From an uncultured delta proteobacterium (lineage in GTDB: Bacteria > Myxococcota > Myxococcia > Myxococcales > Myxococcaceae), in contig CAVYSY010000045.1 in assembly GCA_963771175.1 (NCBI GenBank), forward strand, positions 96,001-160,000: a stretch of 64,000 bases of DNA, read 5' to 3'. Below, piece by piece: positions 19,714-22,836 of this stretch (its first letter is position 1; each line of letters begins with the position of its first letter). A program made the translations under genes and the position numbers. The notes under the pieces are model-generated. The model was not told the origin of the DNA. It did no database searches and saw nothing but the letters and a program-made list of their open reading frames with translations.

Positions 19714-20351
19714 GGCTCCACCGCCCTGTGCTCTCCGCGCCAGATACAGCGCAGGCCGCCGCCGAGCCGCTGGATGGCGAATCCATCGAGCGGCGCCAGC
19801 CAGGTTCCTGTGAATTGCTCGCCGGAGAGCGGAGCGATGGCGGGCATCAGCACCGAGTCATGGGTGATGCACACGCCACTGCCCCTTCTCGCGTCGAGGC
19901 GATCGAGCGCCGCTGACAGCAGCAACCGGGTTCCCTCTCCAGCCGCGCGGACGAAGGGCCAGCGCCGCCCGGAGAGCTGCGCGCGGACGACCCCTTCGGT
20001 GCCCAGCTCGGCGAACAGGCGCGCCCCCTCGGTCCGGTCCATCACCCAGGGGCCAGGCGAGCCCAGCCGGGTGTCCACCTCCACGCTGCTCGTTCCCGGC
20101 CGCTCCGCGAGCGCCTCCGCCGTGCGCCGGCACCGGAGGAAGGGGCTGATGGCGGCCCAGGAGATTCGCGTGCGAAGCCTGTGTCCGAGCTCCAGGGCGG
20201 CTTCGTGGCCAGCGGGAGTGAGGTCGACATCGGCGTAGGGCTCCTCGGGAGGGAGGGGGGCCCGCTCCGCGTGGCGCAGGAACAAGGTGAAGGGGGCGGA
20301 GGGGTCCAGGGCATTGAGCGTACGGACGAGTCCCTCGGGCAGGAGGGTCAT
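19707..20351 (-). CDS. Histidine phosphatase superfamily protein
   Basis: LFLRHAER, SPFLRCRRTA, ITHD; overlaps both neighbouring genes. Confidence 0.88.
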   Translation of the reverse strand: MTLLPEGLVRTLNALDPSAPFTLFLRHAERAPLPPEEPYADVDLTPAGHEAALELGHRLRTRISWAAISPFLRCRRTAEALAERPGTSSVEVDTRLGSPGPWVMDRTEGARLFAELGTEGVVRAQLSGRRWPFVRAAGEGTRLLLSAALDRLDARRGSGVCITHDSVLMPAIAPLSGEQFTGTWLAPLDGFAIQRLGGGLRCIWRGEHRAVEPW

Positions 20352-21290
20352 GGCTCATTCCCCAGGTGCTCGAGGCCCCAGAAGGTGAGCAGCTCGATGC
20401 GCTTGTCGAGCGGGAGCGGCTCGATGGGGCCACAGGCCCGTGCGGTCATGACCACCTTGGCGTAGTGCTCCAGGCCCTCGACACGGAGGAAGGCGTTCCA
20501 GATGGAGTCGGCCCAGGCAACCACTCCGTGGCGCGGAAGGATCGCCCAGTTGTAGTGCTCCATGTACGGGCGCAGCACGGCGGGGCTCTGCTCCGAGGAG
20601 ATCCGGGCGTACTCCGTGGTGGGAATGGGCGCGACGCTCACGTAGGTCTTGTGCAGGTCGACGCCCGCCAGCGAGGCCGCCACGGCATAGGGCGAGTGGA
20701 CGTGGATGACGCAGCGGCAGTCCGGACGGGAGCGGTGCAGCTCGACGTGCAGGCGGTACTCGGACGTCGGACGGCGGTCGCCTCGGAGCAGGGTTCCATC
20801 CGGGTGGGTGACGACGAACTCCTCGGGGCGGATGAATCCGTTGTGCGAGCCGCTCGGTGTCATCAGCAGGGTGCCATCATCGAGCCGGTAGGAGAGGTTG
20901 CCGTCGATGGAGACGTTGTACCCGCGCTCATAGATGAGAATGCGCGACGCGGGTGAGCTCCTGGCGGATGCGCCACTCGGGGTCGGCCTGGTCTGGATGG
21001 AAGAGGCCTTCACGGTCGAGCTGCCCGTGTGTGCCCTCCACCGTGCAGGACGAGGCGTGACCATCGACGAATGGGAGGATCCACTGAAATCGGAGCCCAT
21101 GGGTGGGAAGCTCGTGACCGTGGGGATCGATGAGGACGGCGCTTCCATCGAACCGGTGGGCGACGGCGAACCCCTCCCGGAAGGCGCTGACCGCACGGTA
21201 GCGGGATGCATAGACGGGCTGTCCGGTCCCATCGACATGGGCCCAGGTCCCATCCGGCATCCGCGCGGGATGCGGTTCTGACTCAGGCAT
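20348..21290 (-). CDS. WG-repeat domain fused to a class II aldolase/adducin domain; one frameshift near 20940
   Basis: N-terminal WAHVDGTGQPVY...SAFREGFAV and LPFVDGHA repeats; then DGNLS, LMTPSG, PTSEYRLH, HVHSPYA and RHGVVAW. EWRIRQELTRVAH joins LIYERGYN to restore the normal aldolase N-terminal helix. Confidence 0.8.
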
Positions 21291-22836
21291 GCGCACGCAG
21301 CTCCTCCATCAGCTGTCGGGACAGCGTACGAGCATCCGGGCGATTCTTCGGGTCGAGAGCGAGCGCGCCCTGAAGGATGGAGGTGAGCCGGACCTCGAGA
21401 CCGCTCAGGTCAGGCGAAGCTCGCACGGCGAGGAACGCGGCGCGGACCGCATCCCATCCTCCCGCGGCAAAAGCACTTTTCACATCGACGCGGAAGGGCG
21501 TCGTGCCGCGAATCAGGTAGGCGAGCAGGGCGGCCGAGGCGTACACATCGACGGTTGCATCAAGGGTCGTGAAGTCCTGGAGTTGCTCGGGAGGAACGAA
21601 CTCCCACCGCCCCCAGTTGACCTCCCCGCCCCAGGCCTTGTCCGCACCGAGCCGGATCGCATGGGCGAAATCGAGCACGGTCACGTCGGGTTCCCCTCTG
21701 GAATCGGTGACGAGCACGTTCTCCGGATGGAGGTCCGTATGGGCGAAGCCGGCCTCGTTGAGGCGAGCACAGACATCCAACACGGCGAGTATCACGGTGA
21801 TCGCTCGGCTCACCGGCATGGGCTCGCACCGGTTCCTCCCACCCAGGATGCGGCCTGGCCGATGTTCCAGGAAGAGCCAGCTGCCTCCCTCCACGTTGAC
21901 CCGCCCGCGCACGCCTGGGACATGGGGATGCCCCGCGAGCAGGCGGAGCACCTCATGCTCCCGATCGTGGCTCCCGCGGGTCGTTTTGGCGACCACGAGC
22001 TGACCACTCGCATCTCGTGCCGTCCTCACCGTTCCCCAGGCGGTCCTCGCGAGGACGGCGGTCTCGTCGATGGTGAAGTCTCCGAGCCGCAGCGGGGATT
22101 CTGGGAGGAGCTGGGACGGTGCGCGAAGGAGCACCACCGGCTCACCGATCTCATTGATCGACTGGAGTGCTCCGTCGAGCCGCTCGACGCGCGCCTGACC
22201 GTTGTAGAAGGGCTCGACCGTGGCGAAGCGGCGCGCGTAGAGGGGGCGCCCCGGCCATCGACGTGCATCCAGCCCGCGTCGTCCCGCGCGCGGGCGAAGC
22301 CCTTGTGGAACACGTCGAGGTCGAGGAACCAACGGCCGTGGAGCGAGGCGGCCCGCCGCGATCGATGTGGGTCGAGCGTCCGTCGTCGCCCTGCACGACG
22401 GCGATGCCGTCGCGGAAGTCGCCGGCGTAGCGCCACCGCTCCGCGTACGCCGGGCTGTCCCTCGCGGATCGAGGTGCAGGTAACGCCCGTCGCGCGTCGC
22501 GGACGGCGCAGCGGCCGCTCCTGGAAGTTGCCGCACCACGCGTAGCGCTCCGGGTACGGCGTCCGCGCCGTCCGGGCGGATGTGGTGCCAGCCGTCGTCG
22601 GCGCTGACGGCGGCGCAGCCCTTCGTAGAAGCCGAAGGTGCGCCGGAAGCGCCGCGCGTAGGCCGGCGTGCCCCGCTGCATCGATGTGCCAGGCCTCGTC
22701 GTCCGCGCCGAACGGCGCGAGGCCGGGCGCGTGGAACTTCGAGCACCTCGTCGAAGCGCTCGTCGTAGAGCGGCGCGCCGTCCAGCAGATGGTGCGTGCC
22801 GGTCGTGCGCGATCGCCGACGCTCTGCCAGTCTCAT
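21283..22836 (-). CDS. WG-repeat domain fused to a Hanks-type protein kinase; multiple frameshifts
   Basis: Repeats FGFYEG.AAV, AGDFRDGIAVV, LDVFHKGFARA and VEPFYNGQARV; kinase motifs VVAK, HTDLHPEN, LDFA, FVPPE, DVYA and DPKNRP. Confidence 0.8.
   Translation of the reverse strand: MRLAERRRSRTTGTHHLLDGAPLYDERFDEVLEVPRARPRAVRRGRRGLAHRCSGARRPTRGASGAPSASTKGCAAVSADDGWHHIRPDGADAVPGALRVVRQLPGAAAAPSATRDGRYLHLDPRGTARRTRSGGATPATSATASPSCRATTDARPTSIAAGRLAPRPLVPRPRRVPQGLRPRAGRRGLDARRWPGRPLYARRFATVEPFYNGQARVERLDGALQSINEIGEPVVLLRAPSQLLPESPLRLGDFTIDETAVLARTAWGTVRTARDASGQLVVAKTTRGSHDREHEVLRLLAGHPHVPGVRGRVNVEGGSWLFLEHRPGRILGGRNRCEPMPVSRAITVILAVLDVCARLNEAGFAHTDLHPENVLVTDSRGEPDVTVLDFAHAIRLGADKAWGGEVNWGRWEFVPPEQLQDFTTLDATVDVYASAALLAYLIRGTTPFRVDVKSAFAAGGWDAVRAAFLAVRASPDLSGLEVRLTSILQGALALDPKNRPDARTLSRQLMEELRAHA

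Follow-up and report, generated by a model that had tools for sequence, protein, structure and literature searches.

A conserved WG-like repeat module fused to exchangeable enzymes in a myxobacterial glycosyltransferase–radical SAM cassette: a candidate docking domain

The window analyzed here—64,000 nucleotides of contig CAVYSY010000045.1 from an uncultured member of the Myxococcaceae—carries a cassette of seven genes (Table 1). Two adjoining minus-strand genes within it each join WG-like β repeats to an enzyme: one encodes repeats plus a kinase (22836 to 21283), the other repeats plus a class II aldolase (21296 to 20348). The frameshifts in the window are of the long-read type.

Table 1 Features of the cassette, numbered by position in the window.
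Feature	Position	Strand	Remarks
GT4 glycosyltransferase (Cys-rich insert) and radical SAM/SPASM, one fused protein (GT4-rSAM)	22836..25214	-	UC3/WD0613 homologue; heavily frameshifted in the assembly
Full repeat module, 6.5 WG-like β repeats, 235 aa	22123..22836	-	start overlaps GT4-rSAM stop (TGATG)
Hanks-fold kinase domain, HTDLHPEN catalytic loop, without GxGxxG loop	21283..22122	-	in frame with last repeat; Pkinase E 2.9e-16
Short repeat piece, ~2.5 repeats, ~100 aa, aldolase N-terminus	20991..21296	-	profile comparison, model pLDDT, dN/dS
Class II aldolase-fold metalloenzyme, cassette-specific subfamily	20348..20990	-	Aldolase_II E 4.9e-39; single +1 frameshift at 20939
Histidine phosphatase	19707..20351	-	His_Phos_1
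NodU/CmcH-type carbamoyltransferase, frameshifted	18057..19713	-	domain matches and G007 comparison
Second radical SAM/SPASM enzyme	16895..18079	-	domain matches and G007 comparison
Third radical SAM enzyme, frameshifted	15986..16905	-	domain matches and G007 comparison

An intact locus in a genome of the same genus (L011, G007:C113) served as frame reference. Against it, 9.3 kb of the window show 58 frame-breaking indels of 1–2 nt, 49 of them at 22.2–25.2 kb, a density at which the two fusions might be taken for products of sequencing errors. However, no frame-breaking indel lies between 22251 and 20939; hence, no stop interrupts the passage from the last repeat to the kinase, and the frame of the aldolase repeats stays open through about 15 residues of the aldolase domain, up to the +1 shift. 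In G007, both fusions are clean open reading frames of 514 aa (kinase) and 315 aa (aldolase), and the same fusions recur in many independent assemblies. An assembly artefact is thereby already refuted by the orthologues: the fusions that the first-pass annotation had read from the sequence are real, and no stops part the repeats from the enzymes.

The full module at the kinase N-terminus is 59–73% identical across phyla, with a fixed number of repeats, each of which bears its own conserved loop. It was proposed to belong to the WG/KWG repeats (PF14903, WG_beta_rep). Both proteins stay under the gathering cut-off of 25.6 bits (16.4 bits for the aldolase piece of the window, 13.6 for the G007 aldolase, and 25.0 for the G007 kinase); orthologous modules on other proteins reach 28–42 bits. 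All 30 of 30 Atlas feature matches of the module are WG_beta_rep clusters, with best scores of 0.94–0.95. The module shares 35-residue β repeats with F-x-x-G-x-A-x-V with these proteins but has W-x-H in place of the WG motif—the literal WG dipeptide is nearly missing, at 0.03 per module in 65 full-module sequences—and generic WG proteins are only 22–35% identical to it. It also differs from them in its fixed count of individually conserved repeats and in the lack of a signal peptide. The latter had been noted before and agrees with a crude hydropathy test, in which the best 12-residue value within the first 45 aa does not exceed 1.51 across 65 modules.

The kinase attached to this module was described as Hanks-type, which is right for the fold and most catalytic residues: Lys, αC Glu, catalytic Asp/Asn, Mg-binding Asp, an APE-like motif, and αF Asp are kept in 10 aligned domains. 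It does not extend to the GxGxxG loop, of which one Gly is retained, nor to the Lys in the catalytic loop HRDLKPxN, which reads H[TS]D[LIV]HP[EG]N in nine of nine GTDB loci. The nearest solved structures in the PDB are Pkn-type kinases. The substrate of the cassette kinase is probably a sugar or small molecule and not a protein.

For the second enzyme, the assignment as class II aldolase with a metal-binding His motif is borne out by its homologues: the catalytic Glu, the HxH, and the third His are invariant in 10 of 10. None of the NCBIfam aldolase equivalogs (FucA/DrdA/OtnC) is reached at cut-off, the best being OtnC with 107 bits versus 250. Among the PDB sequence matches, DrdA (6BTD) ranks third (E 3.5e-20), and the aldolase occurs mostly in a cassette variant with extra radical SAM genes. 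This resembles the DrdK/DrdI/DrdA salvage of 5-deoxyribose, where a kinase and a class II aldolase are likewise tied to radical SAM chemistry, and the tethered kinase and aldolase might accordingly dispose of 5-deoxyribose formed by the three radical SAM enzymes. We regard this as very improbable. The published pathway, in the accessible part of PMC6079011, relies on a methylthioribose-kinase homologue and an isomerase, whereas the cassette kinase is Pkn-like and no isomerase is seen in the cassette; moreover, the aldolase is only a distant relative of DrdA, which YgbL outscores.

The repeats on the aldolase had been called the same module as those on the kinase. The two are indeed homologous beyond chance (profile–profile probability 97.8, E 9.6e-13), but the aldolase carries only ~2.5 repeats against 6.5, with 35–44% identity to the full module, and its piece has no invariant His. 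Its model is confident (pLDDT 88–94 over residues 11–100), and dN/dS is 0.17–0.28 in five pairs—0.20 versus G007—which lies below the values of the kinase (0.32) and the phosphatase (0.33). The short piece is thus under purifying selection in five of five pairs, and a reading as a decaying remnant was dropped for this reason. Of 34 decidable aldolase homologues, 8 lack the piece, among them those of three loci (L056, L156, and L167) where the kinase fusion has a repeat-free aldolase as its neighbor. On a tree of 28 of the 36 aldolases, from which near-duplicates and fragments had been excluded and whose root at L163/L164 was chosen by us, its distribution requires three changes, of which at least two are forced. 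It is retained where the aldolase gene heads a divergent operon (L146, L147, and L162) or ends the operon (L152); hence, second module copies are not explicable by gene adjacency. A low-sensitivity word search of a 5.8-billion set with the short piece alone returned only three close aldolase fusions.

Conservation of the full module is also pronounced at His: six are invariant in 65 full-module sequences (His16, 50, 154, 163, 174, and 188) and four further ones nearly so. The AF2 model of the G007 module orthologue has a pLDDT of 94. The fold resembles a propeller, but fold searches with the module returned partial propeller matches only, with Foldseek TM up to 0.58 at an rmsd of 6–8 Å and VIA Z up to 9.8. 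Propeller folds often serve ligand binding. The His-rich repeats with their individual loops might, hence, bind a sugar or nucleotide intermediate, a metal, or a modified macromolecule and present it to the fused enzyme. We consider this unlikely: neither fold search made a lectin or an enzyme conspicuous or gave any other functional pointer, a His that recurs at one strand position of the repeats can have a structural role, and the short aldolase copy is conserved though it has none of the invariant His. The loss of these His also speaks against docking by the short piece, which may not share the binding target of the full module.

The most constant partner of the module is the GT4-rSAM protein. 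Wherever upstream DNA is available, its gene immediately precedes that of the module (78 of 78 loci; the remaining 2 of 80 are cut by the contig end), and in 66 of the 78 the two share 1 or 4 nt. Where the module is present in the phylum—11 of 201 sampled genomes—the radical SAM protein is found as well (11 of 11), whereas a related solo radical SAM protein (family f7, 17 of 20 genomes) comes without the module and, in the four loci fetched, without GT4. What follows the module varies. Among 80 GTDB loci the passenger is an O-methyltransferase (OMT) in 54, a kinase in nine, a P-loop kinase in one, and absent in 16. Among the best 150 of 587 representatives, phosphatase, NTase-like, PhyH (dioxygenase), and TPR passengers join these, as do three full-module aldolase fusions, one of which (P0131) belongs to the aldolase subfamily of the window. 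The module is better conserved than its passengers, with median identities of 65% versus 54.5% for OMT (41 loci) and 66.5% versus 42% for the kinase (six loci). On the poorly resolved module tree (17 of 100 branches starred), the kinase state requires 12 changes, and at least three of these are forced by well-supported branches. The expectation that interchangeable enzymes sit on one module is, hence, confirmed by this catalogue, and the operons that contain the module look cytoplasmic. Two proteins even unite the module, OMT, and the cassette's own GT4 (45% and 39% identical), and others place a phosphatase between two modules (P0155 and P0194). A protein with module and radical SAM tail (P0236) resembles a deletion chimera and was left out of the evidence.

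Taken as a whole, gene order, start–stop overlap, conservation, repeated passenger swaps, and selection on the short copy suggest that the module is a fixed part of the core, which would dock to the GT4-rSAM protein encoded upstream and carry a fused tailoring enzyme. We assign this reading a probability of about 0.5. Its main competitor is that the module is a stand-alone core subunit that GT4-rSAM requires and to which downstream genes occasionally become fused by stop-codon loss—free of any recruiting role—while the aldolase piece stabilizes or caps its enzyme. In 16 of the 80 loci the module occurs alone, so that it must do something for which no passenger is required; genes for phosphatase, NTase, and TPR proteins are fused to it at some loci and separate at others; and the phosphatase, phosphatase–NTase, and TPR fusions merely join the next gene of the operon. 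The optional nature of the aldolase piece, absent even from some loci with the kinase fusion, counts against docking, too. On the other hand, an intact separate OMT or cassette kinase gene beside the module was not seen in the 80 loci, PhyH and P-loop kinase are also fused on the N-terminal side of the module, and second copies require duplication and retention, the short one under selection. We therefore judge fusion by mere proximity to be rather unlikely, if less so than ligand binding.

The cassette might also be a conflict or anti-phage system, in which DNA, protein, or a signal molecule would be modified by a constant core of GT4-rSAM and module, and effectors such as the kinase or a TPR-HEPN-like protein would fill the variable slot. 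Its distribution is patchy, and its flanks differ between the window and G007. Three loci have a TPR family with RNxxAHG as a neighbor, a fourth has a piece of it, and in two proteins (P0075 and P0087) this family is fused to the module. PADLOC matches—BREX, DISARM, Azaca, Zorya, Shedu, Menshen, and others—occur at most two genes away in 17 of 75 loci versus 2 of 33 random regions (26 of 245 versus 3 of 135 by gene), where the control regions are myxobacterial only and unmatched for mobile DNA. This enrichment is borderline, with p = 0.053 at the level of loci and 0.10 without unvalidated PDC models. Furthermore, the seven G007 cassette proteins give only generic kinase or weak viperin-fold matches in PADLOC 2.0, none of the four G007 flank genes matched, and the core in endosymbionts is accompanied by transporters and aldolases and is expressed. 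A defense function appears improbable to us.

The closest described relative is the Undecim cluster of Wolbachia prophage WO. Its genes UC2–UC4 comprise an epimerase (WD0612), a GT-radical SAM protein (WD0613), and a KWG repeat fused to an O-methyltransferase (WD0614), with copies on plasmids of Rickettsia and Arsenophonus. The order of the UC3–UC4 core is the same here: the GT4-radical SAM/SPASM protein of G007 matches its phage WO counterpart with 52% identity over 781 aa, and the module, directly after it, is 43–47% identical (47% over 94% of the module for the phage WO match). The kinase stands where WD0614 has its C-terminal O-methyltransferase, and a second short repeat copy sits on the aldolase. 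In place of PhyH, ABC transporter, threonine aldolases, and UDP-glucose dehydrogenase, the cassette has a phosphatase, a carbamoyltransferase, and two radical SAM enzymes; the remaining UC genes (including MFS and epimerase) and the prophage WO location are not matched by the seven cassette genes. With the query used, neither a UC2-type epimerase nor an OMT orthologue was found in the genome of the window (G000). As the seven genes otherwise belong to other families, the cassette shares the UC3–UC4 core, yet it is not an Undecim cluster. It is a mobile cassette, likely a sugar-modifying one, whose core is common with phage WO.

Functions of the Undecim genes are, in the accessible text of PMC9203015, predicted from annotation only. 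In the accessible text of PMC4701759, the KWG-repeat/O-methyltransferase fusion WD0614 is remarked upon as unusual, and detection of the proteins by mass spectrometry is reported; among the papers matched, 'KWG Leptospira repeat' led to this one only. Our literature search returned no paper that brings WG repeat, radical SAM, and glycosyltransferase together, and the searchable literature—subscription journals and supplements lie outside it—gave no description of kinase or aldolase fusions. The KWG-repeat–methyltransferase fusion is, hence, already known, and new here is the kinase and aldolase variant of an uncharacterized cassette.

A precedent for the tethering logic is WbdD of Escherichia coli O8/O9a, a methyltransferase and/or eukaryote-like sugar kinase, which, according to the accessible part of PMC3482155, recruits the mannosyltransferase WbdA via a noncatalytic region. 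This would be a functional analogy, with no homology claimed: as described there, WbdD relies on a coiled coil, and its substrate is a lipid-linked polymer in a system with an ABC exporter; the seven cassette genes show no sign of a coiled coil, an exporter, or a membrane protein. In the docking model, GT4 would build a glycoside from a nucleotide sugar, which the radical SAM domain would then oxidize or epimerize, and the passenger—usually a methyltransferase, here the kinase—would decorate a hydroxyl. Aldolase, phosphatase, carbamoyltransferase, and the two extra radical SAM enzymes might form an add-on tailoring block, with the short piece of the aldolase as a partial duplicate that would help recruitment and not be required for it. 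The product would most likely be a small modified glycoside. A broader version is tentative and less probable than docking in this cassette: the module could be a general plug-in docking domain, akin to a dockerin tag, by which the GT4-rSAM core takes up interchangeable methylating, phosphorylating, cleaving, or oxidizing enzymes. The operon might then encode a natural multi-client complex, with the same machine in the Wolbachia Undecim cluster and some archaea.

Wolbachia expresses the Undecim core, which also passes from one endosymbiont to another, yet what it does is predicted from annotation alone (PMC9203015, PMC4701759, and bioRxiv 10.1101/2025.04.16.649125). Because free-living myxobacteria carry versions of this core, it can be tested in culture. 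With its exchanged passengers catalogued, a formerly anonymous repeat becomes the subject of a specific hypothesis, that of a fixed partner-binding domain with variable enzymatic cargo. If true, WG-type repeats, about which the searchable literature says very little, would gain a first concrete cytoplasmic role, and the module would possibly be a reusable enzyme-tethering tag.

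The window (C45:96001–160000) belongs to an assembly of 9.8 Mb in 58 contigs that is 82% complete, and six-frame reading traces a run of seven overlapping genes through it, many interrupted by single-base indels. An intact copy of this cassette, L011, lies in the same-genus genome G007 and is 86% identical across 9.3 kb; the flanks of the two are not alike, as expected for a mobile cassette. Relative to L011, the window bears 58 frame-breaking indels, 49 of them within 22.2–25.2 kb—a density about 10 times that found elsewhere in the cassette, suggesting that the assembly was poorly polished there. 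Because one segment is free of such indels, the window's own sequence reads in frame across both repeat–enzyme junctions; the junctions are clean in L011 as well, and no stops separating repeat from enzyme were found. The two adjacent fusions reported by the first-pass annotation are hence real, whereas its claim that they share the same module goes too far: the kinase bears a full repeat module and the aldolase a short, different piece. The N-termini are not hydrophobic, in keeping with the proposed absence of signal peptides.

Positions and lengths of cassette genes and neighboring features
Locus	Position	Feature	Length
Window, minus strand	25214 to ~15986	seven overlapping genes	
Window	22200–25250	suggested poorly polished stretch	
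Window	22251–20939	zero frame-breaking indels versus L011	
Window	9605–13665	run of ORFs that look by eye like subunits of lysine 5,6-aminomutase, a hot-dog-fold protein and a 3-keto-5-aminohexanoate cleavage enzyme	
L011		GT4–radical SAM/SPASM	782 aa
L011		repeats–kinase	514 aa
L011		repeats–aldolase	315 aa
L011		histidine phosphatase	214 aa
L011		carbamoyltransferase	551 aa
L011		two radical SAM enzymes	393 and 314 aa
L016	5549–8863	protein joining NB-ARC and TPR to a flavin domain like that of Lamassu LmuA (PADLOC E 6.6e-89), immediately downstream of a methyltransferase-type cassette	
L061; L071; L094	6276–8051; 4886–6721; 5720–7534	TPR family adjoining the cassette	
L168; L169; L171; L173	8330–9583; 7392–8462; 7311–8351; 7057–8094	solo radical SAM of family f7	
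L170	6764–9762	cassette remnant	
L035; L054; L017	4062–6037; 12981–13664; 820–1479	families without Pfam match: NTase-like domain; WVDWD protein	~225 aa (WVDWD protein)

The kinase module comprises 6.5 repeats of ~35 residues (235 aa). Its G007 copy is modeled by AlphaFold2 as all-beta (pLDDT 94.4, pTM 0.82), and fold searches return only loose propeller matches. The orthologues exceed the Pfam WG_beta_rep cut-off, and the kinase and aldolase proteins score just or well below it; a language-model search with the repeats matched WG_beta_rep clusters only. Across 65 loci, the module is 59–73% identical to the G007 copy, each repeat has its own distinct conserved loop, and six histidines are invariant. 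No histidine is invariant in the aldolase piece. Ligand or metal binding through the histidines of the module seems quite unlikely. Conservation is higher in the module than in the enzymes it carries, with median identities of 65% versus 54.5% for the O-methyltransferase (OMT) and 66.5% versus 42% for the kinase.

A GTDB pattern scan gave 272 relatives, the best 80 of which were fetched and span Myxococcota, Alpha- and Gammaproteobacteria, Latescibacterota, Chloroflexi, Planctomycetota, and others; a profile search (E up to 1e-30) gave 587 clusters at 50% identity. The module's partner is fixed: the glycosyltransferase–radical SAM fusion (GT4–rSAM) lies immediately upstream in each of the 78 loci for which upstream DNA is available, and 66 of the 78 show an overlap of 1 or 4 nt. 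An NAD-dependent epimerase precedes it in ~40/80 loci, and the histidine phosphatase is usually next downstream. In an even sample of the phylum, 11/201 genomes carry the module, all 11 with the rSAM, and one further genome retains a deletion remnant—in the complete genome G208, where the rSAM end and nearly the whole module were lost while GT4 and OMT remain. In family f7, 17/20 genomes bear a solo rSAM without module, 42–54% identical to the cassette domain; the four loci fetched show no GT4 and adjoin lemA/TPM-like genes (named by eye), and this rSAM looks like a domesticated offshoot. In six loci (L146, L147, L154, L157, L159, L162), the aldolase–phosphatase–carbamoyltransferase–rSAM block diverges from the epimerase–GT4–rSAM–module block, which makes these two separable sub-operons.

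That catalytic domains behind the repeat are interchangeable, as first proposed, is borne out by the fusions. Passengers in 80 loci are OMT (54), none (16), this kinase (9), and a P-loop kinase (1); the best 150 of 587 representatives add histidine phosphatase, NTase-like domain, PhyH dioxygenase, and TPR, as well as three full-module aldolase fusions, of which P0131 has the window's aldolase subfamily. A full module–aldolase fusion also forms the P0260 cluster, whose member P0274 carries the label Euryarchaeota archaeon from its source. The G007 kinase module is nearer to methyltransferase-type modules (69–73%) than to other kinase-type ones (63–68%). A quick ML tree was built from 103 modules, with good support for only 17/100 branches; it requires 12 changes of the kinase state, of which at least 3 are forced, and 16 of the methyltransferase state, of which at least 4 are forced. 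Among the same best 150, two proteins have a module either side of a phosphatase, and two join the module to both a methyltransferase and the GT4 of the cassette itself; the latter (P0249, P0265) are single-member clusters, and their low-complexity insertions suggest eukaryotic origin. The NTase-like family (GGAFK...RDLD) is frequently fused to phosphatase, and the WVDWD protein, GT-A-like by eye, occurs in 10/80 loci. The cassette-adjoining TPR family, also fused to the module in P0075 and P0087, has no Pfam match besides TPR; its C-terminal RNxxAHG stretch is presumably a HEPN-like motif.

By hhalign, the ~100-residue aldolase piece is a homologue of the module (97.8%, E 9.6e-13), with 35–44% identity, and it is predicted to fold confidently (pLDDT 88–94). 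All 36 aldolase homologues (10 GTDB and 26 metagenome, some near-duplicates) adjoin cassette genes; 26 have the piece, 8 lack it, and 2 could not be decided. Three loci with the kinase fusion have an aldolase without the piece, and it is retained where the aldolase gene comes first in a divergent operon or last in its operon. By simple Nei–Gojobori estimates, with high synonymous divergence in some pairs, dN/dS is 0.17–0.28 for the piece (five pairs), 0.07–0.14 for the aldolase domain, and 0.32–0.33 for kinase and phosphatase (window/G007 pair). Low dN/dS together with absence in 8 homologues marks the piece as useful but optional.

We put the probability that the module is a docking domain at about one half. 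It would bind the co-translated GT4–rSAM and thereby likely deliver the fused tailoring enzyme; the fixed partner, high conservation, GT4 fusions, and selected second copies favor this, whereas modules that stand alone, an aldolase piece that is optional, and fusions with the next gene disfavor it. That fusions merely hitch-hike is unlikely, and a general enzyme-docking tag is rather doubtful.

The kinase has a Pkn-like fold with its catalytic residues, which upholds part of the Hanks-type label; HRDLKxxN is replaced by HxDLHxxN, and the GxGxxG loop is missing. Histidine at this position is typical of small-molecule kinases. The aldolase-fold enzyme retains its metal site, as claimed. Since its nearest structures (YgbL, DrdA, FucA) are all distant and no NCBIfam model attains its cut-off, it may perform aldol cleavage, decarboxylation, or epimerization; 5-deoxyribose disposal, suggested by the likeness to DrdA, is very improbable. 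Epimerase, GT4, phosphatase, carbamoyltransferase, methyltransferase, and an occasional UDP-glucose dehydrogenase point to sugar chemistry, and inspection of the seven cassette genes revealed neither a transporter nor a membrane protein.

A conflict system is decidedly improbable. PADLOC (E up to 1e-25), scanning 245/591 flank genes, matched 26 genes in 17/75 loci, against 3/135 genes in 2/33 random regions. These tallies omit matches to generic kinases (5 in flanks, 1 in controls), group II intron RTs (2 in flanks), sigma54/RtcR regulators (2 in flanks, 1 in controls), and ABC ATPases (2 in controls). When loci are compared, Fisher's test gives p = 0.053 (0.10 without PDC candidates); when genes are compared, it gives 0.002, although genes are not independent. 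This excess does not establish defense and fits a cassette landing in mobile hotspots.

The Undecim cluster of Wolbachia phage WO is the closest known relative: the phage protein is 52% identical to the GT4–rSAM, the modules are 47% identical, and the order epimerase, GT–rSAM, repeat protein recurs in WO and on Rickettsia plasmids. An Arsenophonus plasmid lists epimerase and repeat–methyltransferase genes with an unannotated 2.4-kb gap between. In published accounts, Undecim is defined with functions guessed from annotation (PMC9203015), WD0614 is a KWG-repeat/O-methyltransferase fusion with proteins detected (PMC4701759), and Undecim functions are stated as unknown (bioRxiv 10.1101/2025.04.16.649125); the comparisons with WbdD and Drd draw on PMC3482155 and PMC6079011, respectively. 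Our literature search, beyond which supplements and subscription journals may bear on the matter, found no description of the kinase fusion, aldolase fusion, or passenger catalogue. The feature is real, in part as first described, and is a new form of a known, uncharacterized cassette, in which methylation and phosphorylation would be alternative decorations set by the passenger.
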